A stretch of DNA of 64,000 nt, taken from positions 1-64,000 of IMG/VR virus record IMGVR_UViG_3300032893_000017; one strand, written 5' to 3'. The position numbers were made by a program, and so were the translations under genes. Of the stretch, positions 1 through 40,564 are shown piece after piece. How positions within the stretch are numbered: position 1 is the first letter of the stretch; each line of letters starts with the position of its first letter. The notes beneath the pieces are model-generated. The model was given only the letters and a program-made list of their open reading frames with translations. It did not search any database and was not told the origin of the DNA. This DNA is from a virus.

Positions 1-767
1 ATTTCTTGTACTGAAGTGCTTGTTCCTGCAACAAGATATATGGCAGGTGTATTTACAGTTCTAATATCCTGAATTGATGCATTTGCCAATTTAGCAATAG
101 TAACACTCAAATTAGGATGATCTAGAGTTGCATTTGTTCTATGCTGTTGCAAAGAATTTATTATAATAACTGTATTTTGTTCTTGTGTCCATCCCGTGTT
201 ATTTTCTCCAAAAGCAGAAACAACATTGTAGATGTTTGCGTTTGCTATCCCTCCATTTACCGGTACAGCTATTTCACATAGTTTCAATTTTCCTGTGTCT
301 GCTAAAGGTGCGCTTCCACTTCCCTCTGCCCCCTGTTTTACTGTTATTGTCATATCTATTAAATATTCTACAGTTGTGCTCAAGGAAGATACTATTTGAG
401 AACCTGGATCTATAAAATACCTGCTCTGCGATGTCTGAGCTGTGTATGTAAAATCTGCTTGCAGTATATCTATTCTTATACTGGATACTGGCTGTGCAAT
501 CGCTATGGTTTGCATGGCGGGGTTTATTAATACAGTCCCATCCGTTTTTATTCCTAAGTGAGGATAAACTCTAACATTGTAGTCTGATCCTGTATTCTGG
601 GTTACTATATTTTGTCCTGCTGTTGTAGGTATAATGCTTGCTTGTGCATTTGCTATACAATGAGTAACAAGATCTTTCAATAATGTTTCATAAATGAATT
701 TCGATATATTGACCATATCAGAATCTGTTGCTTGCTGATATTGACTCACTTTAACTATTTTTGCCAT
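1..767 (-). CDS. tail fibre / baseplate-attached protein, N-terminal part (runs off left edge; not in ORF track)
   Basis: ATG at 767 overlaps the upstream TAA (TAATG) and follows GGAGG. My translation is MAKIVKVSQYQQATDSD...RIDILQADF...VKQGAEGSGSAP...LCEIAV, a typical fibre N-terminal anchor; it lies directly after the baseplate wedge genes. Confidence 0.7.
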   Translation of the reverse strand, partial: MAKIVKVSQYQQATDSDMVNISKFIYETLLKDLVTHCIANAQASIIPTTAGQNIVTQNTGSDYNVRVYPHLGIKTDGTVLINPAMQTIAIAQPVSSIRIDILQADFTYTAQTSQSRYFIDPGSQIVSSLSTTVEYLIDMTITVKQGAEGSGSAPLADTGKLKLCEIAVPVNGGIANANIYNVVSAFGENNTGWTQEQNTVIIINSLQQHRTNATLDHPNLSVTIAKLANASIQDIRTVNTPAIYLVAGTSTSVQE

Positions 768-2464
768 TAACTGCCTCCTAAGAAATCTCTAGTAATAATT
801 GGGCTGGATCCCATGTTTTCACCATTCCATCCAAAGTAAAATGTTCCAAAAAATGCAGACGTTAATTGATACTGTTCCAGTATTTCTATCCTGTATCTTA
901 CTCCTGCTACTCTAAAGTCATCACATATAGATACCATCTTGATATAGTTTTCTGATATTATTGTATCAACTAATATTCTAAAGAAAAAGGGTAATCCATT
1001 AGAAGCTCCACAAAAAGCTTCTTTAACAATATTAGAATTCATTTTATATATGTTTAAATAAGGTGACGAATCACTGCCTGCAATCAAGTAATTTCTGTTA
1101 TGCGAAAAAATAGCAATCTCACTAGCACCTAAAGGCAATACATCTGGATCACTCAATTGAGTATAGACTTCTCCACTTCTTTGCCAAGTATATACATAAG
1201 GTGAGTCATCATAGGATATTGCTAAAAATATCCCATCAGACGAATAGGAAGTATAATAAGAACCTGAGGTTGTTGGTAATCCTGTAATATCTGCTATCTT
1301 TGTAAAAGTATCATTTACTCTTCTATAAACTCTTAATGGAGTCGTAGTCTCGTTAGATGCTATTGCTAAATATCCACTGTCTGGTGTGAAGGAACATCCT
1401 TCTCCTGCTCCTGTTGGAAGAGATAATGGATCTGCCAGTTTTGTGAAAGTGTCACCTGTTCTTTTGTATATAACAAAATAAGGTGCTGAATTGCAAGTGA
1501 ATACTAAATAAGTTCCACTAGGATCAAAACAGCAATTGGTGCATCCTCCAGCTGGGAGACTTACTGGATTAGTAAGCAATGTAAATACATCCCCTACTCT
1601 TTTGTAAATAGCTACCTGAGGATTTGTTTCTAAAGCAAAAGCTAAATAAGTCCCATCTGGACTCCAAGCACATCTGTATGCTGAAGCTGGAAGGGTCAAG
1701 GGATTTATCATTGCTGTAAATACATCTTGATTTCTTTTATAAATAAAAACTTCTGGACTGTTTCCGTTGTTCACTAACACTAAATAACTATTGTCTGGTG
1801 AAAATTGACAATCATAAGAACTTCCAATAGTAGGAATGCTTGTTGGGTCTGCCAGTTTTGTGAAAGTGTCACCTGTTCTTTTATAGATAATCAATTGAGG
1901 ATTTCCTGTAGATACAACTGCCAAATAAGTGTCATCAGAACTAAAGGAACATCCTACTACTCCATTTGCAGGAACATCTATTGGGTCTGTTAATCTTGTA
2001 AAAGTAAAGTTTTGGAAATAAGTGATATTATCACAAAAGGTTACATCGCAAAATGCCCCATAATTTACTCCCTCTTGCAATCTTACATTTGTTCCCAGAT
2101 CCTTTATTGCTTCGTATATTATCAAAGGTGAACATTTTAAAGCAAATATCTGTAATATAATTCTAGCATAAAATTCATCGTCTGTTTCTCCTACTTGTCT
2201 TGTTATTCCATAAAAATTCTGTGCAATATAATCTAAGTAGGTGCTTTTTGTTTTGCTTAGATCTAGTTGATCTACCAGGAAACTAGCAAAATCCATTTCA
2301 TATTGAAGCAGATTTGAAATTGAACCTTTGTTGTAATCATTTATTTTTACCAGTCCGTCTACAATTACATCTATTTTGCTTTCATCTCCAATCAGATTTA
2401 AGTATTCCCCTTCTTCTCGATTGAAAATCTGTAAAAAATCATTTAACTTCTCGAGTGAGTTCAT
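767..2464 (-). CDS. baseplate wedge protein (P2 gpI-like) with inserted 7-bladed beta-propeller
   Basis: N-terminal LDYIAQNFYGITRQVGETDDEFYARI wedge motif; seven 45-48 aa repeats (FSPDxxYL...IYKR..D.FTKL.DP); follows baseplate J. Confidence 0.75.
   Translation of the reverse strand: MNSLEKLNDFLQIFNREEGEYLNLIGDESKIDVIVDGLVKINDYNKGSISNLLQYEMDFASFLVDQLDLSKTKSTYLDYIAQNFYGITRQVGETDDEFYARIILQIFALKCSPLIIYEAIKDLGTNVRLQEGVNYGAFCDVTFCDNITYFQNFTFTRLTDPIDVPANGVVGCSFSSDDTYLAVVSTGNPQLIIYKRTGDTFTKLADPTSIPTIGSSYDCQFSPDNSYLVLVNNGNSPEVFIYKRNQDVFTAMINPLTLPASAYRCAWSPDGTYLAFALETNPQVAIYKRVGDVFTLLTNPVSLPAGGCTNCCFDPSGTYLVFTCNSAPYFVIYKRTGDTFTKLADPLSLPTGAGEGCSFTPDSGYLAIASNETTTPLRVYRRVNDTFTKIADITGLPTTSGSYYTSYSSDGIFLAISYDDSPYVYTWQRSGEVYTQLSDPDVLPLGASEIAIFSHNRNYLIAGSDSSPYLNIYKMNSNIVKEAFCGASNGLPFFFRILVDTIISENYIKMVSICDDFRVAGVRYRIEILEQYQLTSAFFGTFYFGWNGENMGSSPIITRDFLGGS
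1431..1882. repeat. 35-nt identical direct repeat between two propeller blades (1431-1465 and 1848-1882)
   Basis: tctgccagttttgtgaaagtgtcacctgttctttt occurs twice, 417 nt (139 codons) apart. Confidence 0.9.
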
Positions 2465-3573
2465 ACTCTAGTGACTCCAATTGTTATACTGTTTGTTTTT
2501 GCTTCTTCGTTTGCTAATACTGAAACATTTCCAGTAGGTGTACTTACCTGGAAGTCATAAATATCTCTATGTGAATTCATTGCAACTGTGATTGCTTCAC
2601 TTAATATCCATTGCTTTCCTATCTTTAAGGAATTTGTATATGTCTGAATTGCTGATGATGCTAAGGAAATGTACTGTGCATCGGTTAATTGTCCTGAACT
2701 TAATATGTATAGTTGACCTGTAATATTTATTTGATGTACTGTTGGTGCTGTTACTACCAAGCTTATTCCTGCAGCTCTGTAACCTGGGTAATTTGCAAAA
2801 TCATTTTGATCTCCATTTATTATTTTTTCTATCAATGTTTGCTTGTCTGGAGGAAGTGTTCCTGTTCCATCATCTGCATATATTGTTATCCATCCATAAT
2901 CTGGAAGATTTTCTACCAATGAAACACTTTTTATTCCTTCTACAGAAAGAGCTGCGTATAATACTCCTTTTACTGTGCTTCTCGCTAATGAGTTGATAAA
3001 AAGTAGGAATCTTTGAGCCCTTGCTGCATCTGATTCCTCGTCTGTTCCATTTGTAAATGCAGTAACATTTGAACAAGATTCAACTCCAGCTGGTTGATTT
3101 ATAAAACTACCCTGTCCTACTAGAGTATCTATTGCTCCCATTGAAATATTACCTTGAGTTCCAACTATTGTGCATTGAGTTGCTATAGGTGCTGAGTCGG
3201 TTGCACCATTTAAAATAGAACCTACTGCAATTGTTTCAAACTTTATTCCATTCAATATTATTTGAGTTCCTATTGCTATTGGATAATCTTGTGTTGCTGC
3301 TGTTGATCTAGAGAATACTAAGTATCCAGATGCTTTTATTCCTGGGAGTCTTGCGAAGTTAAAACCAGCATATATGGCTATCGGTATTGCTTTCAGCAAT
3401 CCTTGATAAAAATCATTCTGAGTTTCTGATGACACAAGTGAAACACCTTCCAAAATAGTTGCTAGTCTGCTTCCTGTATTAAAATTATTAAGTGCTGAAT
3501 TATTTGCTACAAGATATCTCTTAAGAGCATCGAATATCTGATCATTAGTCTTAGGTTGATATATTGCTGACAT
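2461..3573 (-). CDS. baseplate J-like protein
   Basis: A.G.L.F.R, G..GNI and GTDEESDAARAQR motifs; 370 aa; position in baseplate module. Confidence 0.9.
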   Translation of the reverse strand: MSAIYQPKTNDQIFDALKRYLVANNSALNNFNTGSRLATILEGVSLVSSETQNDFYQGLLKAIPIAIYAGFNFARLPGIKASGYLVFSRSTAATQDYPIAIGTQIILNGIKFETIAVGSILNGATDSAPIATQCTIVGTQGNISMGAIDTLVGQGSFINQPAGVESCSNVTAFTNGTDEESDAARAQRFLLFINSLARSTVKGVLYAALSVEGIKSVSLVENLPDYGWITIYADDGTGTLPPDKQTLIEKIINGDQNDFANYPGYRAAGISLVVTAPTVHQINITGQLYILSSGQLTDAQYISLASSAIQTYTNSLKIGKQWILSEAITVAMNSHRDIYDFQVSTPTGNVSVLANEEAKTNSITIGVTRV

Positions 3574-3584
3574 TCTTTTCTCCT

Positions 3585-5411
3585 TTATGTTTGTATGCTT
3601 GCATTACTTAATAGATTTCCTACATCAAGCACGTTTTCACTTCCAGAATAAGGTTTATATCTTAAATTGATTTTTATTGTATCTCCTATTTTTGTTACAT
3701 CTTTCTTATTTATGTAGCAAAAATTAGTTCTTGGGTCTAATGATACCTGCTTTGTTACTGCATCTATTAATTTAGACAGAATTACTGCTGATGGAACATT
3801 ACCTATATAAAGATTGATACCCCATTCTGGATGCAGTGGATTAAGTGAATTTGTTTGATATATTATTCTATCGAAGATATTAGCTTCATAGCAATCTTGT
3901 CCATATACCATTCCAAAATCTCCTGTTCCATCTACAACAAATTCTCTATTTGAATCCAAGTCCAAATCACTTCCAAGAACTTGAAGCTGTCTTTCTTGTG
4001 GAGTAGATATTTCTAATCTTTTGGTATAGACTAGATTTTTTGTAAGTGTGGTATAATTGATAACTGTTTGCTGTGGTATCATTATATTCTGACCTACTAT
4101 AGCATCATTTATAAAACTTTCTGTAGTTAATCCATTTGCATCTAGGATTAAATTGTATTGTGAATAGTCTCCATAAAATTTCCTTGTTATCTTGGATAAT
4201 GTATCACCAGACTGGATTGTATAATATACTGAATCTTTATAGACATAACCCCTTTGTACTGTATCAGAAGCAACAAAGTTATTAGGTATATTCTTCTCAA
4301 ACTGTTCTGCTGTTAATACTAAATCTGAAACTGATATTTCTTTCTTCTGTAAGTTATTCACAAATTTATCTATTGCTATTACTAAGGATAAAGCTAAATT
4401 CATTCCAGATATTCCTGCTAGAACATTTATATAATTTTGGTTTGTGATTAAATAGTTTGGATCTTCCTCTCTGTATTTTGTTAATATGCTGTCTATACTC
4501 TCACTAATCTTATCTGAAAATATTACTTTTGTAATATTGTAAGCAATATTAACTAATTGATCTCTTGTATTAAGTGCATTGGTAATTATTTGAGTGTAGT
4601 CTGTTATAGTATTGTCTACCAAACTCTGTACTCCTGCTATCATGTCATTTGCAAAAGATACAACCTGATTCCAGTCATCTGATATTTCTGAAGGCAGACT
4701 GGATAACTGCTGACTTATTGCTATTACATTATAGAATTGATCTCTTGCTGCTGTTAATATGTCACTCAAAGATTCTTTCTTTAATACTCTTCCTAGTCCA
4801 AGAGAATAGATTCCTGAATATTCTCTTATTGTTTTCATTTCTATAGTATAGTTTATTGTCCATGGATCTGCTTTACTTCTTGACATTGTAAAGTTGGTGA
4901 ATATTACTTCGTAATGATTATTATCATCGTAGTCGTGATAGACTATACCTATATTTTCATAAGTTGCTTTTGAACTTCCTATCAAAGCCATCAAAGCATT
5001 TATTTCTGGAAATACTGATTTTAATTCTGAATGATTATCTGTTCCATTTGGATCTCTGAATCTTGAAACTATATATCTTAATTTAAAAAATTCATCTAAA
5101 CCAGATATGCCTGTATTGACTGGAATGTTTTCTGAATTGAATATATTTCCTACATAGTAAGAATATAAAGAACCTGTTAATTTTATTACCTTAATGTCAT
5201 TTCCAAAATCATCTACCCACGCATCGCTCATTGTCTTGGTAACAGTTGCTTTATATCCTTCTTGAATTGTATATTCTTCTGGTGGGAGTAAGAAAAATAA
5301 TTCTGTCAGCCATCCTCCAAGTTGACTTGTTTGAGGATTTCTGCTAAAGAATTCAAATGAAAAAATACCTGTGAAACTGAAAGCATCACTCAAAATATCC
5401 AAAAGATTCAT
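3585..5411 (-). CDS. baseplate protein: tube-initiator-like N-terminus + LysM + gp25-like C-terminus
   Basis: LysM YTIQSGDTLSKITRKFYG...ILDANGL; C-terminal GDFGMVYG...LHPEWG...DPR sheath-initiator-like motif. Confidence 0.7.
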   Translation of the reverse strand: MNLLDILSDAFSFTGIFSFEFFSRNPQTSQLGGWLTELFFLLPPEEYTIQEGYKATVTKTMSDAWVDDFGNDIKVIKLTGSLYSYYVGNIFNSENIPVNTGISGLDEFFKLRYIVSRFRDPNGTDNHSELKSVFPEINALMALIGSSKATYENIGIVYHDYDDNNHYEVIFTNFTMSRSKADPWTINYTIEMKTIREYSGIYSLGLGRVLKKESLSDILTAARDQFYNVIAISQQLSSLPSEISDDWNQVVSFANDMIAGVQSLVDNTITDYTQIITNALNTRDQLVNIAYNITKVIFSDKISESIDSILTKYREEDPNYLITNQNYINVLAGISGMNLALSLVIAIDKFVNNLQKKEISVSDLVLTAEQFEKNIPNNFVASDTVQRGYVYKDSVYYTIQSGDTLSKITRKFYGDYSQYNLILDANGLTTESFINDAIVGQNIMIPQQTVINYTTLTKNLVYTKRLEISTPQERQLQVLGSDLDLDSNREFVVDGTGDFGMVYGQDCYEANIFDRIIYQTNSLNPLHPEWGINLYIGNVPSAVILSKLIDAVTKQVSLDPRTNFCYINKKDVTKIGDTIKINLRYKPYSGSENVLDVGNLLSNASIQT

Positions 5412-25783: not shown

Positions 25784-25832
25784 AAAGATTCAATTAAAGG
25801 CTCTATGTTTCAAGAGCCTAAAATTTAATCTT
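25784..25832 (-). ncRNA. conserved intergenic stem-loop element, copy A (unidentified)
   Basis: AAGAUUAAAUU-UU-AGGCUCU-loop-AGAGCCU-UU-AAUUGAAUCUUU. Confidence 0.7.
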
Positions 25833-26242: not shown

Positions 26243-26291
26243 AAAGATTCAATTAAAGCCTTCAGTTGTTTGAAGGCTGAAATTCAATCTT
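26243..26291 (-). ncRNA. conserved intergenic stem-loop element, copy B
   Basis: AAGAUUGAAUU-UC-AGCCUUCA-loop-UGAAGGCU-UU-AAUUGAAUCUUU. Confidence 0.7.
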
Positions 26292-27826: not shown

Positions 27827-27838
27827 TTGTTTTCTCCT

Positions 27839-27902
27839 TTGATCTATCTCATCAGTTGCAAGTGATCAATCTTGCAAGACTCCCAGTTAAGGGAGTTTCG
27901 AA
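27839..27902 (-). ncRNA. hammerhead ribozyme, type II with pseudoknot
   Basis: UC-GAAA-CUCCC(uuaacu)GGGAG-UC-UUGCAAG(auugauca)CUUGCAA-CUGAUGA-GA; loop I UUGAUC pairs with 3' GAUCAA. Confidence 0.88.
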
Positions 27903-27903
27903 T

Positions 27904-28056
27904 TTATTTAACTTTCTTTTCCAATATCTTTTTCATATCAGGACTTATTACTGCATCTGGATCAAGTAAATCTTTTATGATCTGCTGTTTTTCAGTTTCA
28001 TTGTTTGCACTGTGTAATAATACTGCAACTTCAAGGTCATTGTAATAATATTTCAT
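27904..28056 (-). CDS. small hypothetical protein (not in track)
   Basis: 50 aa MKYYYNDLEV...; AAGGAGG RBS. Confidence 0.55.
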   Translation of the reverse strand: MKYYYNDLEVAVLLHSANNETEKQQIIKDLLDPDAVISPDMKKILEKKVK

Positions 28057-28462: not shown

Positions 28463-28514
28463 AAAAGATTCAATTAAATCCACTCAATTAAGAGTGGACA
28501 AAGTTTAATCTTTT
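28463..28514 (-). ncRNA. conserved intergenic stem-loop element, copy C
   Basis: AAAAGAUUAAACUU-UG-UCCACUC-loop-GAGUGGA-UUU-AAUUGAAUCUUUU. Confidence 0.7.
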
Positions 28515-28696: not shown

Positions 28697-28887
28697 TATT
28701 CAACTCCTTTTGACTGATAAATTAAAATACCTTTATTGATACATTCTTGTAAATCTTCTTCTTTTTCACTTTTATATGCTATTCCACCAATTATATGTAT
28801 CTCATACATTAGCTTCATTACTTTATGTTTACTAATTGATATTTTATTACCTGAAGGTACATGCAAATAAATTCCTGTTTTTATCAT
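28696..28887 (-). CDS. hypothetical protein (true start MIKTGIYL, not 29124)
   Basis: AAGGAGGAG RBS before ATG 28887; the longer track ORF overlaps another gene and a ribozyme. Confidence 0.6.
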   Translation of the reverse strand: MIKTGIYLHVPSGNKISISKHKVMKLMYEIHIIGGIAYKSEKEEDLQECINKGILIYQSKGVE

Positions 28888-28904
28888 AATCTCCTCCTTA
28901 TTTA

Positions 28905-28966
28905 TTGCTGACTTTGAACAGCTTGTTTTCACAAGTGCATTACAGGGATTGCTCCCTGTCATCTGC
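28905..28966 (-). ncRNA. twister ribozyme, circularly permuted (open at P5 position)
   Basis: GCA-GAUGA-CAGGGA(gcaa)UCCCUG-UAA-UGC-AC-UUGU(gaaa)ACAA-GCUG(UUCAAAGU)CAGC-A. P1-P4 and both pseudoknots (UCA/UGA, AC/GU) are satisfied. Confidence 0.9.
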
Positions 28967-29158
28967 CTAGGCATATTTAAGATCATTAAGTAACCACATA
29001 GCTTCTGATTTTTTTTCAAAATAATCTTTATACTCATCATATTCTTCTTTTTTATCATAAGAACTTGCTGGTTTTTCAAAAGCTTGTATTTCTTGTAATT
29101 CACCCTTAACTTTTCCATTGTCAAAAAATTTAGATATAACCAAAAAATATGTTTTCAT
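28967..29158 (-). CDS. hypothetical protein (start MKTYFLV)
   Basis: AAGGAG RBS before ATG 29158; flanked by two ribozymes. Confidence 0.6.
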   Translation of the reverse strand: MKTYFLVISKFFDNGKVKGELQEIQAFEKPASSYDKKEEYDEYKDYFEKKSEAMWLLNDLKYA

Positions 29159-29192
29159 ATTTCTCTCCTTGATCATTTCTGATCTCATATTT

Positions 29193-29244
29193 ATTGCTGA
29201 CTCCCTTTCGGGAGTTTCGTCTATTTAAGACTCATCAGAGCAAC
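29193..29244 (-). ncRNA. hammerhead ribozyme, type I
   Basis: GUUGCU-CUGAUGA-GUCU(uaaau)AGAC-GAAA-CUCCC(gaaa)GGGAG-UC-AGCAAU; full core with GUC cleavage triplet. Confidence 0.93.
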
Positions 29245-30200
29245 TATTTTTCTAAAATCTTTATTATTTCTTTTGCTTGTTCAATATTTACTTTCAATCC
29301 ATTTATAGATATTTCATAATCTAATTTATCTTCTTCAACAGGCTTTATTAAATCAACTTTTATTTTTTGGTCTTTAATAGTAATACTATATTCGTCTATC
29401 TCATAACCTGATCTTTCATGTCTTCTTCCTCTATAATAAGGATTTAATTTATATTCTTTTTTGTGTTCTACTGTAATATTTAAAATCTCTTCAAGCTTTG
29501 TTTTTGTAGAATCAATATTTTTTAAGTTATCTACTTCTTCTTTTTTCTTTTCTTTTTCTTTCGCAATTTTATCATCTACCAATTTTTTGAACGAAGAAAT
29601 TAAAGACTCTAACTTCGTAAATCTTTTTGTTTTATAATCTGATATAGAATCATTGAAACTGTATCCTGCAAAATGTGAATCCATTGACCATTTACTATTC
29701 GAAACATAATGCTCTGATACATATATTTTATTATTCTTGTATTCAACAATTACTCTATAACCTCTTAAAAAGTTATCTTCATTAAAACTTTCAACTGAAG
29801 TTTTAATTCCACTTTCCTGTAAATTATCGATTAATTTTTTTACATTATGTATCCAACATTTATCATAAGCTTTTTTTGCTTTTTCTAGTTTTACTTTTCT
29901 ATCATTTTCTTTTTTAGCTTCTAATAATGATTTATATTCTTCATACAGTACAGTTAGATCCAATTCAATTCCTAATTCTTTTAATGATTTTTCAAAAGAC
30001 TCATCAAGGAATTTTGAATTTATAAAATTACTTTTTTCTGAATTCCAATCCATAAAAAATTTAATTTCTTTTACTGCATTATTAATCTTAACACTAATAA
30101 GTGCATTGTCTGTAACATATTCCTCATTTATTCTTTTAGAAACAATAAATTCAAATTCGTTCACTTTAGAAGGTTTTAAAATTTGTTTTGTAGTATCCAT
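29244..30200 (-). CDS. hypothetical protein, first gene of small-gene operon
   Basis: 318 aa K/E-rich ORF; RBS; preceded by a promoter. Confidence 0.65.
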   Translation of the reverse strand: MDTTKQILKPSKVNEFEFIVSKRINEEYVTDNALISVKINNAVKEIKFFMDWNSEKSNFINSKFLDESFEKSLKELGIELDLTVLYEEYKSLLEAKKENDRKVKLEKAKKAYDKCWIHNVKKLIDNLQESGIKTSVESFNEDNFLRGYRVIVEYKNNKIYVSEHYVSNSKWSMDSHFAGYSFNDSISDYKTKRFTKLESLISSFKKLVDDKIAKEKEKKKEEVDNLKNIDSTKTKLEEILNITVEHKKEYKLNPYYRGRRHERSGYEIDEYSITIKDQKIKVDLIKPVEEDKLDYEISINGLKVNIEQAKEIIKILEK

Positions 30201-30262
30201 AATATTCTCCTGTTAAATAATCTAATTAAAAAGATTCATACGAATCTTCCCTTTGTAATAAT

Positions 30263-30292
30263 ATTATACAAATGAGATTGGATTAATTAACC
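30263..30292 (-). promoter_or_regulatory. promoter GGTTAATT-N13-TTGTATAAT
   Basis: Duplicate of the motif at 27264-27293. Confidence 0.65.
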
Positions 30293-34400: not shown

Positions 34401-35191
34401 GTTTTATCAAATTGAATATTATAACCTGCATTTCTAGCTGCTTGAAAGTCTACTGCAAATTTCTCACTACTATATCTTGTAATAGGAATATGTCTTCCTT
34501 CAATTGTCACCCATACTGTTGCCCCTATTGGAATAGAATGAAAGTCTATTCTTCCTTCTGCTGTTAATTTAGGTTTAATAAAAGCTTTCAATAATGTCAT
34601 TGATCTAGGGTTAAAGGATTTCTTTATATTCTCTCTTGCTACATCATCAATCAATTTAAATCCACAAGCACAATTATTTCTCAGCATCTCTAAATAACTC
34701 TTGTCAATTATCATTCCTTCTATATACCATTTGAATATGGTTGCAAACACCTCTTTTATATTGCTGCTTGTATGCTCATTTAAAAATAAATGATTCTTTT
34801 CTTTTCTTATTTGTATTCTCAATTTATCCAGCTTAACTTTTACAATTGTATTGTTGTCTAATCCCCATTTATGAAACATCATGTGACCCAACTCATGTAA
34901 GCAGTCTGATCTAAAGTCTGGAGAGTGTTCATACAATATAATTATATTTTCATCCAACTGTGCTCTGTCTAATTTATTGTCTTCTTTATTCTTGTATAAG
35001 TGTATTATTATAGGTTGCTTTAAATTAAGAAATGATTTTATTTTTGTAAGTAAAGGTTCCAATTCTTGTTTTACTCTGTTACCTTCTTGCCGTTTCCATT
35101 CTATATTGTCTATGTGAATGTTTTGAGATTTCTGCAATTTATTTTTATTTAATATTTTTATATCTTTTTCTTTCCAAAGAAATTTATTCAT
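31457..35191 (-). CDS. polyvalent protein: zincin-like metallopeptidase + SNF2/SF2 helicase
   Basis: LHELGH...EVFA; GVGTGKT, IDEPH, LTATP, GHNLQ, QVDGRITR. Confidence 0.8.
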   Translation of the reverse strand: MNKFLWKEKDIKILNKNKLQKSQNIHIDNIEWKRQEGNRVKQELEPLLTKIKSFLNLKQPIIIHLYKNKEDNKLDRAQLDENIIILYEHSPDFRSDCLHELGHMMFHKWGLDNNTIVKVKLDKLRIQIRKEKNHLFLNEHTSSNIKEVFATIFKWYIEGMIIDKSYLEMLRNNCACGFKLIDDVARENIKKSFNPRSMTLLKAFIKPKLTAEGRIDFHSIPIGATVWVTIEGRHIPITRYSSEKFAVDFQAARNAGYNIQFDKTKSHLTFKVNAKKDKLEKPKEEKQLTERQLEKVRIKEEIKTKKKETRKEIDKSIKDSRRAVLKEVTNKEKENKELESIATKLKTNLDKNDKLSEEQKEQTIQTVLSEVLRRKKQSKIKDCNKLANYKEVQTDKKDELYVNIPNEYHYGLELVNDVKNELNNEEGIKITFNSGLDKQALENKSEIRKKTKQYIDNLAKKESFEKEYKKVNKEKYENLMNIKIEGLEVSKEDVEEIGKRFDKISYKNNSESLYTVLSKLSDGDSLANINLLINKAGTRQVNALTNKFLDINMDFKRLIEGIGLEKSMNLLAMHLRNTLDKNKYEKFIDNIESYFESEVEHIENNALDKIKGLKKEAQNLRTKITQVKVFNKEAERSLVDNLIEQRNILGSSLGLLKSTSELLNSLKKIKNEKDISHVDIELSKDPDKAKIEYKNMIFSTDRNNAKLELHPFKNRVVLSSNLLSNYIKINKIDKERKDKLNKIKNNSTGVLIDKQGNEYTNYKIHGFKSEFKFKPHQRNDVQFLNSNGGKGIISRGVGTGKTMIAVGFHATQLVKDPKYSTVMVIPDKNVKQQVDEIKKYTNLKVTEIPEDMDRNQKRKLLQNTSANGNIFVISHTDLVNNTDILSKKKIDNLTIDEPHEIFFDKNGDIKTKGREIISGLKTKHKIALTATPIQENPSDVYNLINWVDPDGVGKRGNFKLQFGDKEKYDINGMLKTENYSFIDMNLGQQNLMKEYYRDIIDNYVTNDQLTKRGYKINKKLEKTKMLPEMNVYLKKKISNAESEMKKFIKNTPQYFKESYPGSWEERRKQTFINNLVAEQIKESNKYDGIKNPKTKQLVKNIFDKINEKHVIYVDDINHQEHITKVLLDKGYPKEQLFSMLGKKKEAIQNKLNWNDSENPGLLFISKGQVAGHNLQKANTLHKVGTLFDGMGDIQVDGRITRGNRKEDANIISYKFSNIYEENLNKKLQKYKRTLASIDTSLEGA

Positions 35192-37592
35192 TAATTACCT
35201 CAACTTCCAATATTGTTCTTCCTTTTTTACTTTTATATTTTTTTTTAATTTTAAATTTCATTCCATCTATTGCTAAAAATTCCATTTCTATACTATTAAA
35301 TCCCATTGAAACTATTCCACTATCATTTATCCTTCTTAATGCAGGAGCAACTTTACTTCCTTTAGGAAAAGTAATCTCCATTAAAGCCCCATTTTCTGAT
35401 TCATGTTTTGCAAAAGTAAAAGCAATAAATTTATCTCCTGTCCAAGAACTAAAAGATGGAGATTGAAAAATATCTCCCTCTTTTAAATCTTCTGTAAATA
35501 ATTTTCCCATTACTCCTCTATAAACAATAATATTATTTTTTAGTGGGTTATTATTTATATAATTTCTAATATTTTTTATTTGTTTATCAACAATTTTATT
35601 TGTTTCTTCTAAATCTTTTCCTTTGAATAATTTTCTATCTTTTACATTTAAAAATCTTTCTCTTACATAATCATAAGAATTTCCAGAGTAAGAAGATACG
35701 TCTTCTAAAATCTCTTTATTTTTAATATAAAATTCATCAATATACTTTTTATAATTTTCATTAACCCATTTATCATAATCTTCTTCAGTTCCTAAAAATA
35801 CAGGTTCTTTTTTTATTTCTTTATAAATGTATTCTGCATTCTTGCCTTCACCTATCTTTTTGATATATTTGTGATTTAATCTGCTTGATTTTCTTAATTC
35901 TTTCTTCTTAAAATAGAACTTCATCTCGTCTTTGAACTTCTTCAATGACATTGGTATTATTCCACCAAACATTTCTTTTGTCATTGTTTTTATGTATTTA
36001 CTTTCAAATTCCTGTGCTGTCCCAAATCCTATTCCAAACTTTAATTCATCAAACTTTCCATCTAGCTTTTGAATAAGCATGTAGATTGTACTGTATTGCT
36101 TAATAGGTCTATTGATACATACATCTATATCTTCCCCGTCTGGACTGTCTGTGTTTTTGATATATCCATAATCATATTCCATTAAATTTTTATATGGACT
36201 GCCTGGATATTCCCTTGTTTCTCCTTTTCTCCATTCTATAGCAATATCTAATCCTTTGAAGTTTATTGTTTCTTTTGTTGAATCATTTTTTAATAGGTCT
36301 AATTTTTTATCTCTAAAAGACTTCTCTACTTTCCATTCTATTGCATTTATTTCTGGGTTGTATTGCTGAAACTCTGGATGAAACTCAGACCAAAAATGCG
36401 TGCAGTGAGGATGGCTGGGAATTGCTATCCATTTCTTGCCTATTGCATCCTTTCCTACCCATATATAGTATTCTGCAAATTCGTCATTTGCTATATCTGA
36501 GTTTCTAGACTTTGGAACAAGTAAGCAAACCTTTCCTATCCACTTATTGCATGGCTGATCTGGCTTTTCTTGTTTGTTATATTCACCACTGTATATGAAG
36601 TATTTCTTTTCACCTGTTTTTAAGCTGTCCTGTAACCCTGCTGCTAAATAACCATTGTTCATTGCCATAGATGTTTCTGTTAAGATGATCCTTCTAAGAT
36701 CCCTTTCATATGCCTGCTTTGTTTCGTTTGTTAAGTCTTTTCCTAACTCGTCTTCTAAGTCTACATGGTATAATCTACTTATCATTTCTTGTTTTGACAA
36801 TCCATCTTCCAGCCCACTTACTATATTTTTTCTTACTATGTCTCTTATCTTTGTATAAGCATCTCCCTGTATTGATAGATACTTCGCTGCATTTTCTTTT
36901 GCGAACTTAATTGCTTGTGATAACTGTTCATTTCTATCTATTTCTTTTTTTATGTAGTTTTTGTCATTTATTCTCTCTCCATACTTGTCTACTATATTGT
37001 CATAAGACATTCTTTTCTGTTCTTCTTTGTCAATTCCTTCTTCATCCATCCATTTTAATAGTAATCCAAATAATCCTGCTCTTACTATTGTTTCATCCTC
37101 TAGATCAATATTGTCTTTAAAGTAGTTTACAACATCTTTATTGAAAGACTCCCACTCTGCATTGGTCATTAACTGTTTTGTCTCTGGGTTGTAGATTACT
37201 TTTCCTTTAAATTGAATTGGTTCTAACTTTTTCTTTTTTCCTATTCCAAAGGATTGAAACTTATCTATTGCTTTTTTATACTTGTCTCTAAGTTCTGTCC
37301 ACAAGGATTTCATTAGCAATGCTTCTTCTGTTATTTCACCTTGACTAGCTTTCAATAAATCATACATTGGAAAAGAATAAGACTTTCTTACTGACGAAGG
37401 ATCTACTTCCAATTTTAAACATAGTCCTATCATTATTCCTTCTGTAAGTTCATGAAGATATTCTAACAATGCTAATTGGTATTCTTGTATAAAACGAAAT
37501 TGAGAGAATTCATATTCATCTAGATTCTTTATTGCCTTCTCTAGAATATCAAAAAAGTTATTATTGTATTTTGTAGGAATTCTTAGTTTCAT
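35184..37592 (-). CDS. MuF-like minor head protein fused to inorganic pyrophosphatase-like and ADP-ribosyltransferase domains
   Basis: RDLRRIILTE...C...PSHPHCTH (MuF); IEWRKG...YDYGYI..TDSPDGEDIDV (PPase-like); VYRG, FSSWT, EMEFL (R-S-E ART). Confidence 0.85.
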   Translation of the reverse strand: MKLRIPTKYNNNFFDILEKAIKNLDEYEFSQFRFIQEYQLALLEYLHELTEGIMIGLCLKLEVDPSSVRKSYSFPMYDLLKASQGEITEEALLMKSLWTELRDKYKKAIDKFQSFGIGKKKKLEPIQFKGKVIYNPETKQLMTNAEWESFNKDVVNYFKDNIDLEDETIVRAGLFGLLLKWMDEEGIDKEEQKRMSYDNIVDKYGERINDKNYIKKEIDRNEQLSQAIKFAKENAAKYLSIQGDAYTKIRDIVRKNIVSGLEDGLSKQEMISRLYHVDLEDELGKDLTNETKQAYERDLRRIILTETSMAMNNGYLAAGLQDSLKTGEKKYFIYSGEYNKQEKPDQPCNKWIGKVCLLVPKSRNSDIANDEFAEYYIWVGKDAIGKKWIAIPSHPHCTHFWSEFHPEFQQYNPEINAIEWKVEKSFRDKKLDLLKNDSTKETINFKGLDIAIEWRKGETREYPGSPYKNLMEYDYGYIKNTDSPDGEDIDVCINRPIKQYSTIYMLIQKLDGKFDELKFGIGFGTAQEFESKYIKTMTKEMFGGIIPMSLKKFKDEMKFYFKKKELRKSSRLNHKYIKKIGEGKNAEYIYKEIKKEPVFLGTEEDYDKWVNENYKKYIDEFYIKNKEILEDVSSYSGNSYDYVRERFLNVKDRKLFKGKDLEETNKIVDKQIKNIRNYINNNPLKNNIIVYRGVMGKLFTEDLKEGDIFQSPSFSSWTGDKFIAFTFAKHESENGALMEITFPKGSKVAPALRRINDSGIVSMGFNSIEMEFLAIDGMKFKIKKKYKSKKGRTILEVEVINE

Positions 37593-37930: not shown

Positions 37931-40564
37931 CTATTCTCCTTTTTCTATACACTGTAATAATTTATCATAATATTGCTGATCTTTAATTATCCCTTTCTTT
38001 ACTTTATCTTCTGTGTCCCATCTTTTTTTTGTTATTTGTTTTCCCAAAACAAGTTCTTTATCTGAAGTAGACTTAAAAACTAAAGACTTTTGCATCTCCT
38101 GCTTAAATGCTCTCATAAATATATCTTTTAATTTTTCTAAATCACTTTTTGTAAAGTCTGAAAGGCTACCTGTAGGAGCATCTGTTACTCTTACTTCTGT
38201 TTTTTTGTTTTTTAGCAATACATCATGCAATAGCTGATTCCCAAATCTTGCTACCATTTCAGAATCATCCGCGTAATATTTACTATTACTGCTGCTTAAA
38301 AACTTTTGATAAGACTTTGTTTTCTTAACTTCTTTTACAAAAAGAACACGATCTTGATTCCAGATAGGGTTGCCGTCTTTATATCCTAATACTCTTTCTG
38401 TGTAGAACAAATGATGAAAGTATTCGTGAACAAAAGAATTCTTGAATTTAGATCCTATTGTTATACTTTTATTTGAGGGACTGTAAAAAGCTCGTGCTAC
38501 CTTATTATAAGAAATCTGTGCATAATCTTTTTGAAAAGATATTGATAAATTAGTGTGATTTGCAAAACCTAAATCTTTTAAAAGTTCTAATTGATACATA
38601 ATATTACACCATGCTTTTTTATTTTCAGGTGTAATATTATTTTGGATGCTTACTTTGAAGTTCTTATTAGCATAATCATACATTTCCTCTATTTTCATTT
38701 TCTCAAATTTTTTTATAGAAATCATTTTTTCAATATTCTCTAGAGTTTCATTTTCTTTCTTATCTGTCTCTTCATAAATATATTTTGCATTCTTGCCTTC
38801 ACCTATCTTTTTAATATACTTATGATTTATCTTTGATTTAAAGAATACTATTTGAGTTCCAATTGACTTAATTAGTATATCTATCTTTTCCATAATTGCA
38901 TTTATTGGTTGATCACTCTTAATCATTTCTGAATACTTGCTTCCTATTTCTTTTATCTTTTTGAGTATTTTATGCACCATTACTGGAGATATTTTTATTG
39001 CTGTTGCTATTTCTTTTCCTGTTTGCTTCTTTGTTAAAAGATCTACTACTTTCTTTTCATTCTTTGTTTTTAATTCTGATTTTATTTTACTTAAAAAGTC
39101 TTTTACGTTTTTAGTTCTTTCCTTCTGTTCTTGTTCATACTGTTCATTTGTTTTGTATTCCTTTGATATTAAATCTATTTTATCAATATCACTTTCTACA
39201 TTCTCGTCTAATGCAGGTGTATTAAGAATCTTTTCAAAACGTTTGTCTAGAATGTTGTCTCTGTCCACTCCCTGTATACCTACATACTCTCCAGTTTTAG
39301 GGTCTTTTATTTCTCCATGCTTCATATATCCTTTTATGTAAGTGTATAAGTAAGTAGAAAAAGTATTTGGAGGATATTTTTTAAGATTGAAATTTCTTAT
39401 TGCATGTATCATTCCCAAATTGCCATTTTGATATGCATCCTCTACATCTATCTTTCCCGTTTCATAATCCATAAGAAGATTTTTATTACGCTGAATTACT
39501 GCTGTGATATATTTTTGATTCTCTACAATAAAATTAGCTCTTGTTGCCCTATCTTCTTTTAACGTATTTATTTGTTCTGCTGATATATTGCCTATATTTA
39601 TTCCTGTTCTAAGTGTATATGATTTTCCTTCCTTTGTTATTCCTTCTACTATCTTTCCACTTTCATCTCTATACCAATATCTGTAATTTCCTTTACCTCC
39701 CTGTCTACGAATGTATTTATGTCCAGATTTCATTATTCCAGTAATATTTTTGATAAGATTGAAAAATCCTAGTTTAATTGACTTTGCCATCTCCAAAGCA
39801 TGTTGTTTTACTACAAACTCTTTTCCTGCTTCGTCTACTAATTTTACTATCCCGTCTTTTATTTCTTTTATTGTAGCAACTAATCCTCTTCCTTGGTGTT
39901 GATGAATACCTTCTTTTGATTTTGCATCTGGTTTGATTCTAACTTTTGCTCCTATTTTAATTTCTGGTTTTTGTTCCCCGTCTTTCTTTTGTGTTGTTTT
40001 CTTTTCTGCATACTGTTTTGCTTTTTCATAGTCATTTGTGATTTTTGTTTTGCCATCCCAATAGAAACCATCTTTGAATTCCAATCCTTCTATTCGTTTG
40101 GGTTCTTGTTTAGCCTTAGGCTGGTCACCTTTAGCTTCTTCATAAATATATTTATCACCTTCCTTACGAAGATATTTATGAGACATTATATTTTTAAAAA
40201 AGACTAAATTAACTTTTTTTTTTAAGTCTGTTAAAGATTTTAAGAAGCCTATTATTACATTTGGTTTAGATTTTTTTGTTAGTCCTGCTTCTGAAAGTGC
40301 AATCGCAATAGCCTGCTTTCTATTCGTAACTTTATCACCACTTCCAGACCTTAGTTTCTTTCTTTTAAATTCCCCCATGACAACATGCACCTTGTCTTGT
40401 TTGTTTTTTAGCTTTTTTCTTTTCTTAGCTCCAGCACCTAATTTATCTGGGTGCTTGTATGCTTCTTCTACTGTCATTTTTTCTGCAGCATCTACAATAT
40501 ACTTTGGAAGTGCTTCCTGTTCGTTTCCTATTTTGGATTTAATTAAAAAAACTAATTTCGTCAT
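37931..40564 (-). CDS. polyvalent protein: DUF6496-like + KOW-like + sigma70-family factor + zincin metallopeptidase
   Basis: KVHVVMGEFK...RKQAIAIALSEAG; VEDAYQNGNLGMIHAIRNF...FSTYLYTYI (region 2); TGKEIATAIKISPVMVHK (region 4 HTH); FVHEYFH...EMVAR. Confidence 0.8.
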   Translation of the reverse strand: MTKLVFLIKSKIGNEQEALPKYIVDAAEKMTVEEAYKHPDKLGAGAKKRKKLKNKQDKVHVVMGEFKRKKLRSGSGDKVTNRKQAIAIALSEAGLTKKSKPNVIIGFLKSLTDLKKKVNLVFFKNIMSHKYLRKEGDKYIYEEAKGDQPKAKQEPKRIEGLEFKDGFYWDGKTKITNDYEKAKQYAEKKTTQKKDGEQKPEIKIGAKVRIKPDAKSKEGIHQHQGRGLVATIKEIKDGIVKLVDEAGKEFVVKQHALEMAKSIKLGFFNLIKNITGIMKSGHKYIRRQGGKGNYRYWYRDESGKIVEGITKEGKSYTLRTGINIGNISAEQINTLKEDRATRANFIVENQKYITAVIQRNKNLLMDYETGKIDVEDAYQNGNLGMIHAIRNFNLKKYPPNTFSTYLYTYIKGYMKHGEIKDPKTGEYVGIQGVDRDNILDKRFEKILNTPALDENVESDIDKIDLISKEYKTNEQYEQEQKERTKNVKDFLSKIKSELKTKNEKKVVDLLTKKQTGKEIATAIKISPVMVHKILKKIKEIGSKYSEMIKSDQPINAIMEKIDILIKSIGTQIVFFKSKINHKYIKKIGEGKNAKYIYEETDKKENETLENIEKMISIKKFEKMKIEEMYDYANKNFKVSIQNNITPENKKAWCNIMYQLELLKDLGFANHTNLSISFQKDYAQISYNKVARAFYSPSNKSITIGSKFKNSFVHEYFHHLFYTERVLGYKDGNPIWNQDRVLFVKEVKKTKSYQKFLSSSNSKYYADDSEMVARFGNQLLHDVLLKNKKTEVRVTDAPTGSLSDFTKSDLEKLKDIFMRAFKQEMQKSLVFKSTSDKELVLGKQITKKRWDTEDKVKKGIIKDQQYYDKLLQCIEKGE

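Follow-up and report, generated by a model that had tools for sequence, protein, structure and literature searches.

What does a small, apparently self-cleaving RNA do between two genes of a phage message? The question is raised by a 52-nt motif on the minus strand of IMG/VR virus record IMGVR_UViG_3300032893_000017, of which positions 1 to 64,000 (64,000 nucleotides, hereafter the window) were analysed. An earlier reading made from the letters alone, the sequence-only reading, had taken the motif for a type I hammerhead ribozyme after the first gene of an operon. The role of bacterial and phage self-cleaving ribozymes was called largely elusive in a 2019 review (PMC6765202).

The whole record is a complete genome of 97,318 bp with direct terminal repeats, from an uncultured phage. 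Its genes include a tail sheath, a portal and a large terminase, the closest cultured relatives of the latter being SPO1-like myoviruses of Firmicutes at about 25% identity; the phage is tailed, myovirus-like and lytic-looking. No close relative was found among viral or metagenome contigs with the 318-aa protein encoded upstream of the motif, with an SNF2-type 1,244-aa protein (searched in viral contigs and metagenomes) or with the large terminase, the best partial relatives being a 13-kb fragment whose terminase is 55% identical and two helicase matches at 23–24%. Megablast of 27–31 kb against cultured phages gave no match, and one further viral contig (L075) was rejected as a relative, as no window protein matched in the 9 kb of it that was examined. 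Near the head genes (35184–37592 / 37931–40564 region, minus strand), an 802-aa protein carries an inorganic pyrophosphatase-like domain and a weak, sub-threshold match to ADP-ribosyltransferase, and an 877-aa protein carries an internal sigma-70 region 2; these large proteins are unrelated to the ribozyme.

Every large ORF of the window lies on the minus strand. Around the motif about 25 small ORFs form a run at 24–31.5 kb, for almost none of which a family is known. The block has a GC content of about 26% (25–28% regionally), and the motif itself of 44%. A scan of 25.5–31.6 kb found no minus-strand terminators, its terminator-like matches being plus-strand mirror images of the ribozyme stems, and the block is therefore consistent with co-transcription. 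The motif and the features around it are as follows, with the basis of each assignment in brackets.

30231..30268, minus strand: possible transcript start (sequence only)
29244..30200, minus strand: upstream orphan gene, 318 aa (ORF list)
29193..29244, minus strand: type I hammerhead ribozyme (sequence, minimum free energy (MFE) fold, Rfam RF00163, own covariance model, shuffles)
29244..29239, minus strand: stem I, 5′ arm (sequence)
29238..29232, minus strand: CUGAUGA core (sequence)
29231..29219, minus strand: stem II with loop UAAAU (sequence)
29218..29215, minus strand: GAAA core (sequence)
29215..29200, minus strand: stem III with GAAA loop (sequence)
29199, minus strand: cleavage-site C17, the GUC being 29201–29199 (sequence)
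29198..29193, minus strand: stem I, 3′ arm (sequence)
29171..29184, minus strand: 5-bp hairpin GAUCA-GAAA-UGAUC (sequence, MFE fold)
29165..29170, minus strand: Shine–Dalgarno (SD) sequence AAGGAG of the 63-aa gene (sequence; unpaired in predicted folds)
28967..29158, minus strand: downstream orphan gene, 63 aa (AUG with SD, form found in the protein database)
28907..28967, minus strand: twister ribozyme, type P5 (Rfam RF02684, 37.5 bits against a cut-off of 37.6, E = 2.3e-5)
27838..27903, minus strand: type II hammerhead (Rfam RF02276, 42.6 bits, over the cut-off of 37; sequence)

The possible transcript start lies in the 120-nt gap upstream of the 318-aa gene, where a perfect −10 box, TATAAT (30268..30263), stands with a weak −35 and is followed by the hairpin AAGAUUC-GUAU-GAAUCUU (30248..30231, minus) and then a U run. 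A generic promoter scan of 25.5–31.6 kb stayed at background (39 sites against 40.7 expected) and its sites did not include this TATAAT, which, judged by its letters, is a possible candidate for the start of a transcript running into the 318-aa gene. Three intergenic hairpins elsewhere in the block (25784–25832, 26243–26291 and 28463–28514, minus) align with one another, sharing an invariant frame, AAGAUU..AA..UU and UUUAAUUGAAUCUUU, on either side of a variable stem-loop of 7–8 bp; a fourth, shorter copy upstream of the 318-aa gene consists of the lower stem alone (AAGAUUC-GUAU-GAAUCUUUUU, about 30229–30248). Rfam matched none of this hairpin set above noise. Each stem with its U run could act as a leaky terminator, be cut by RNase III or stabilise an RNA end.

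First, we asked whether the motif has what a hammerhead needs. Read 5′ to 3′ on the minus strand, 29244..29193 is GUUGCU-CUGAUGA-GUCU-UAAAU-AGAC-GAAA-CUCCC-GAAA-GGGAG-UC-AGCAAU (52 nt), and the CUGAUGA, GAAA and GUC core and the stems I, II and III that the sequence-only reading had described are all present. Perreault et al. 2011 (PMC3088659) accept hammerheads by their core, the pairs adjacent to it and their helices. On the first count, C3 U4 G5 A6 N7 G8 A9 / G12 A13 A14 / A15.1, U16.1 and H17 are intact; on the second, the core-adjacent pairs 10.1–11.1, 1.1–2.1 and 15.1–16.1 are the standard pairs G29231–C29219, A29198–U29239 and A29215–U29200; and on the third, the three helices are free of multiple mispairs or bulges. 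Indeed, all stems run uninterrupted, with 6 bp in stem I (one of them a terminal G–U), 4 bp in stem II and 6 bp in stem III, including A15.1–U16.1. The topology is that of type I: stem I is open and formed by the ends of the motif, the UAAAU and GAAA loops cap stems II and III, and the cleavage site is 3′ of the ribozyme body. The cut is predicted between C29199 and A29198, the position that the sequence-only reading had also given.

The MFE fold of a 66-nt stretch is exactly this three-way junction (−17.4 kcal/mol, z = −3.6). A descriptor requiring the core, at least 5 bp in stem I, at least 3 bp in each of stems II and III, U16.1 and H17 matched the window once, whereas 300 dinucleotide-preserving shuffles of it gave no match, which excludes chance. 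Together, these features identify 29193..29244 as a genuine type I hammerhead, for which cleavage is predicted.

An Rfam search had been proposed as a check in the sequence-only reading. A permissive match to Hammerhead_1 (RF00163) spans exactly 29193..29244, but at 28.4 bits it stays under the cut-off of 34 (E = 5.5e-4 in a 4.5-kb scan and 0.0079 in the whole window), and a scan at gathering thresholds did not report the hammerhead. The 34-bit gathering score is the curators' cut-off and not a defining property. Ten other copies of the phage type I class described below scored 25.1–31.4 bits, every RF00163 match being under the cut-off, and the low score thus stems from the model, not from a flaw in the window copy. 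Topology, the 6-bp stem I and stem II with its loop (GUCx-xAAAUA-xGAC) are close to the model consensus, whereas for stem III the model expects a very short hairpin and the window copy has one of 6 bp, capped by GAAA. As copies throughout the phage class score too low with the Rfam type I model, routine annotation misses such elements. The RAGATH-1 hammerhead (RF03152) has core, stem II and stem III in common with the window copy, but membership was rejected at 31.1 bits against a cut-off of 56.3; the extra hairpin 5′ of stem I that defines RAGATH-1 is absent, and the stretch upstream of stem I aligns to it as weak A/U pairs only. Matches to snoZ118, SpF43 and freshwater-2 were dismissed as sub-threshold noise overlapping the ribozymes or a hairpin.

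Next, we compared the motif with other viral copies. Seven other viral contigs contain the 25-nt stretch of core and stem II letter for letter; they amount to three further distinct versions, and their stem I sequences differ from that of the window yet remain paired (GUAAAA/UUUUAC, GCACAA/UUGUGC and GUCCUU/AAGGAC); the same holds for stem III. The looser pattern CTGATGAGTC-N4-7-GACGAAAC, which leaves the flanks unconstrained, matched at least 120 viral contigs. Among the matches listed, 103 of 134 cores complete the type I fold (the window's own core and those of the exact 25-mer counted in), and stem I is exactly 6 bp long in 84 of these 103 copies. As a control on the flanks, 88 of 122 listed cores complete a hammerhead with their real flanks, compared with a mean of 1.04 when the flanks are shuffled.

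In an alignment of 72 sequences drawn from the matches listed, 98.9% of cells are paired, a value that is partly given by construction because the set was chosen by a pairing descriptor, a point that the shuffled-flank control addresses. Three pairs of the alignment are fixed by the search pattern. Changes on both sides were found in 10 of the 12 pairs that are not, and still in nine of ten when the core A15.1–U16.1 pair and the adjoining C–G are also set aside. The covariation score of the 72 sequences was 0.80, whereas shuffles gave 0.15 and slid partners no more than 0.12. The stems are free to vary across the 72 copies while the core is invariant, although the search itself prescribed most of the core; U16.1 and C17, on which it placed no constraint, are kept in at least 90% of the aligned copies. 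A covariance model of our own (R1), built from the same alignment, matched the 97-kb genome solely at 29193..29244, where the alignment covers the full motif and has no mispair; its score of 67.4 bits is inflated by the presence of this site in the training set.

The helices are thus backed by compensatory changes at the level of the class, across 72 phage copies rather than across orthologous sites. By its sequence the window hammerhead belongs to an abundant, covarying phage type I class, and the type I assignment of the sequence-only reading holds on this ground as well as on its core, pairs and helices. Fast hammerhead cleavage at cellular Mg2+ requires a tertiary contact between stem I and loop II. 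The window copy shares class features that may supply this contact, namely a 6-bp stem I, an A flanking it on both sides and an A/U-rich loop II of 5–7 nt.

The wider distribution of the core and stem II signature differs between viral and cellular DNA. Among the matches listed, 87 of 126 in viral contigs (loci L012–L131) are type I and 103 of 133 in cellular genomes (L134 onward) are type III, both proportions being rough; the cellular genomes, again among the matches listed, are mostly Patescibacteria/CPR assemblies. In one 76.7-kb viral contig (L055), a type I hammerhead of the same class (575–631, plus strand) sits within an array of 11 tRNAs, between those at 496–569 and 741–814, which hints at a role in tRNA precursor processing. 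In another viral locus (L023), five sub-threshold matches to the type I hammerhead fall within a stretch of 1.5 kb (2403–3880, plus strand).

The hammerhead is not the sole ribozyme of its block. Rfam ribozyme matches in the 97-kb genome number three, all on the minus strand within 1.4 kb. Going downstream from the type I hammerhead, the twister-P5 follows after 257 nt and the type II hammerhead after 1.3 kb. Each of the three begins at a stop codon or one base after it and ends just before the next SD. The final G of the UAG that ends the 63-aa gene is also the first base of the twister, so that this gene has the hammerhead on its upstream side and the twister on its downstream side; the twister is followed by AAGGAGG and then the AUG at 28887. 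Its cut is predicted at U28942|A28941, and in both pseudoknots of the L4–L1 and L4–L2 pairing scheme (PMC6154101) departures from the Rfam consensus compensate each other, so that pairing is kept (T1, UCA/UGA; T2, GU/AC). The type II hammerhead lies directly 3′ of the UAA stop at 27906..27904, with a predicted cut at C27878|U27877. Its loop I, UUGAUC (27869..27864), can form 6 bp with GAUCAA (27844..27839) just before the SD, a pseudoknot between loop I and the 3′ tail being typical of type II hammerheads (PMC3088659). At 29.2, 28.9 and 27.9 kb alike, the ribozymes lie on the coding strand, between genes and bracketing single genes or short blocks of them, the arrangement that marks clustered phage and prophage ribozymes.

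An association of twisters with hammerheads in bacterial and phage DNA has been described before, its biological reason being left unexplained (Weinberg et al. 2019, PMC6765202), and the locus resembles those cases in having a twister and hammerheads in one neighbourhood, with nothing essential differing. An independent viral contig (L065) also carries a type I hammerhead and a twister-P5 (48.4 bits), at 132–180 and 1199–1253 on its minus strand, about 1 kb apart. Type P5 is a rare permutation of the twister, and, because its score is 0.1 bit under the Rfam cut-off, standard annotation would miss the copy at 28907..28967. The 13-mer GUCAGCAAUAAAU occurs exactly twice in the window (28900–28912 and 29189–29201, minus), at the 3′ ends of the twister and of the type I hammerhead; in the hammerhead it comprises the GUC and the 3′ arm of stem I, and in the twister a part of the P4 loop and the 3′ arm of P4. 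That two unrelated ribozymes share this 3′ junction points to recombination, or to a single origin of the stretch that joins them to the leader downstream.

The genes on either side of the type I hammerhead are both orphans. The 318-aa protein matched no Pfam or PHROG family, found itself as the single match among 5.8 billion proteins and had no usable relative in viral contigs. For the 63-aa gene the ORF lister begins at an in-frame AUG at 29188; the AUG at 29158 is preferred, as it has the SD, and the protein database contains this 63-aa form exactly and no other related entry. The hammerhead is placed 28 nt upstream of this SD. A 10-bp A/U-rich hairpin predicted at 29142–29166 (minus) takes up the start codon of the 63-aa gene together with its spacer, while the SD stays unpaired; in sequence of 26% GC, such a hairpin may be due to chance.

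The UAG stop of the 318-aa gene occupies 29246..29244, and its third base, G29244, is also the first base of stem I, in agreement with the overlap noted in the sequence-only reading. After the predicted cut this stop would remain on the 5′ product, 45 nt before the cleavage site. Among 69 distinct type I sites (the listed matches with enough flank), none has a same-strand ORF that contains the ribozyme, the upstream stop overlaps or abuts the ribozyme 5′ end in 29 (about 40%), and the next start codon is at most 60 nt away in 46. As the sites of the class lie between a stop and the next start codon, the placement of the window copy is typical.

This placement allows other accounts of what the hammerhead does. 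We give a small chance to the view that the overlap of stop and stem I is itself functional, the ribozyme sensing upstream translation and deciding whether downstream accessory genes stay linked, or, in a variant, that hammerhead and twister release a ligatable unit with the 63-aa gene. The first of these, taken by itself, is unlikely. On this view, each ribosome that terminates at the overlapping UAG would open up stem I together with some of the core, and only messages untranslated at that moment would be cut; the fate of the downstream genes would then be coupled to translation of the 318-aa gene. The overlap in the window copy and its counterparts in the 29 listed sites fit such gating, but compact phage genomes pack tightly anyway, so that abutment needs no special function, and a hammerhead cleaving co-transcriptionally could act ahead of the first ribosome.

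We regard it as distinctly improbable that the folded hammerhead serves as a structural element, a 3′ stabiliser or a barrier to exonucleases, with cleavage slow or irrelevant in vivo. The fold is compact and GC-rich (44% against 25–28% in the region) and is placed like the conserved hairpins of neighbouring intergenic gaps. A mere hairpin, however, would not need all 13 invariant core nucleotides, and across the 72 copies the core, mostly fixed by the pattern, is invariant and the stems are variable, with U16.1 and C17 kept as stated above; related clustered hammerheads do cleave (PMC3088659).

Still less probable is the variant in which hammerhead and twister excise an RNA of about 257 nt (29198..28942) with the 63-aa gene alone, to be circularised or re-joined by an RtcB-type host ligase or by reversal of the ribozymes. 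The two predicted cuts do bracket exactly one gene, the predicted 5′-hydroxyl and 2′,3′-cyclic phosphate ends are substrates of RtcB ligases, and the possibility was raised by Perreault et al. (PMC3088659). The same authors sought spliced or circular products and found none. In the phage at hand no RtcB ligase gene was found, so that the enzyme would not be phage-encoded, and no sequence feature brings the two RNA ends together.

That the motif is a chance match or a decayed, inactive relic is hardly credible: its score is under the Rfam gathering threshold and it has no orthologous site for comparison, but none of the 300 shuffles matches, core mutations and mispairs are absent, and it is typical of a large covarying class.

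A self-cutting hammerhead also raises the matter of the new RNA end. The hairpin GAUCA-GAAA-UGAUC, placed by the sequence-only reading just before the next ribosome-binding site, is indeed at 29184..29171 with AAGGAG directly after it. It starts 14 nt into the predicted 3′ product and appears in the MFE fold of uncleaved and cleaved RNA alike, although it is weak (−5.1 kcal/mol alone, z = −2.5; five of 200 shuffles fold equally well). Cleavage by the twister or by the type II hammerhead would leave part of the ribozyme as a hairpin 0–7 nt from the new 5′ end. No such hairpin results from a type I cut, so that a separate one could fill that role, and the one at 29184..29171 might protect the new 5′ end. 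As a general partner of type I hammerheads such a hairpin was rejected, the 40 nt after the ribozyme having a mean z of −0.49 against −0.33 in controls (78 sites, from the matches listed); at many type I sites the next start codon is so near that a hairpin has no room.

Finally, these observations allow us to propose a role for the element. We think it very likely that 29193..29244 is a genuine type I hammerhead within a co-transcribed block of small genes, which cuts itself and, with the two ribozymes downstream, divides the phage message. The sequences show the motif, its fit to the family, the family-wide covariation and the stop-to-start placement; that it would cleave in vivo and affect the fate of the mRNA is inferred. 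We suggest that the nascent polycistronic RNA folds the 52-nt motif into the three-way junction and that the backbone is then cut 3′ of C29199. The 5′ product would carry the 318-aa gene with its intact stop and would end in nearly the whole ribozyme, as a compact 3′ end with a 2′,3′-cyclic phosphate. The 3′ product would begin with a 5′-hydroxyl at A29198 and continue with a 14-nt leader, the small GAAA hairpin, a free AAGGAG and the 63-aa gene. The twister cut at 28942|28941 and the type II cut at 27878|27877 would likewise keep the stop on the upstream piece and the SD on the downstream one. Three cuts could then divide one long message into gene-sized units that differ in stability and translation.

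Cutting of long phage transcripts into gene-length mRNAs was proposed for clustered prophage hammerheads by Perreault et al. 2011 (PMC3088659), whose clusters flank single prophage genes and cleave in vitro and in E. coli. The intergenic arrangement of phage hammerheads has been known since that work, and the window copy is a further example of it. The locus shares with those clusters the intergenic, co-oriented placement, the presence of several ribozymes within 1–2 kb that bracket genes of unknown function, the canonical core and the proposed role. It differs in that the 2011 clusters consist of hammerheads only, whereas three architectures, a type I hammerhead, a twister-P5 and a type II hammerhead, occur together here; unlike the earlier cases, it also belongs to an uncultured, lytic-looking myovirus with orphan cargo genes.

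A single hammerhead matters little alone, and the value of this one is that of a clean test case, as the locus is compact enough to be cloned whole for measuring the effects of cleavage on the stability and translation of each gene. Within 1.4 kb, three unrelated ribozyme architectures stand at equivalent positions between a stop codon and an SD, which argues for selection on where the RNA is cut, and on its being cut at all, rather than on any one RNA fold.
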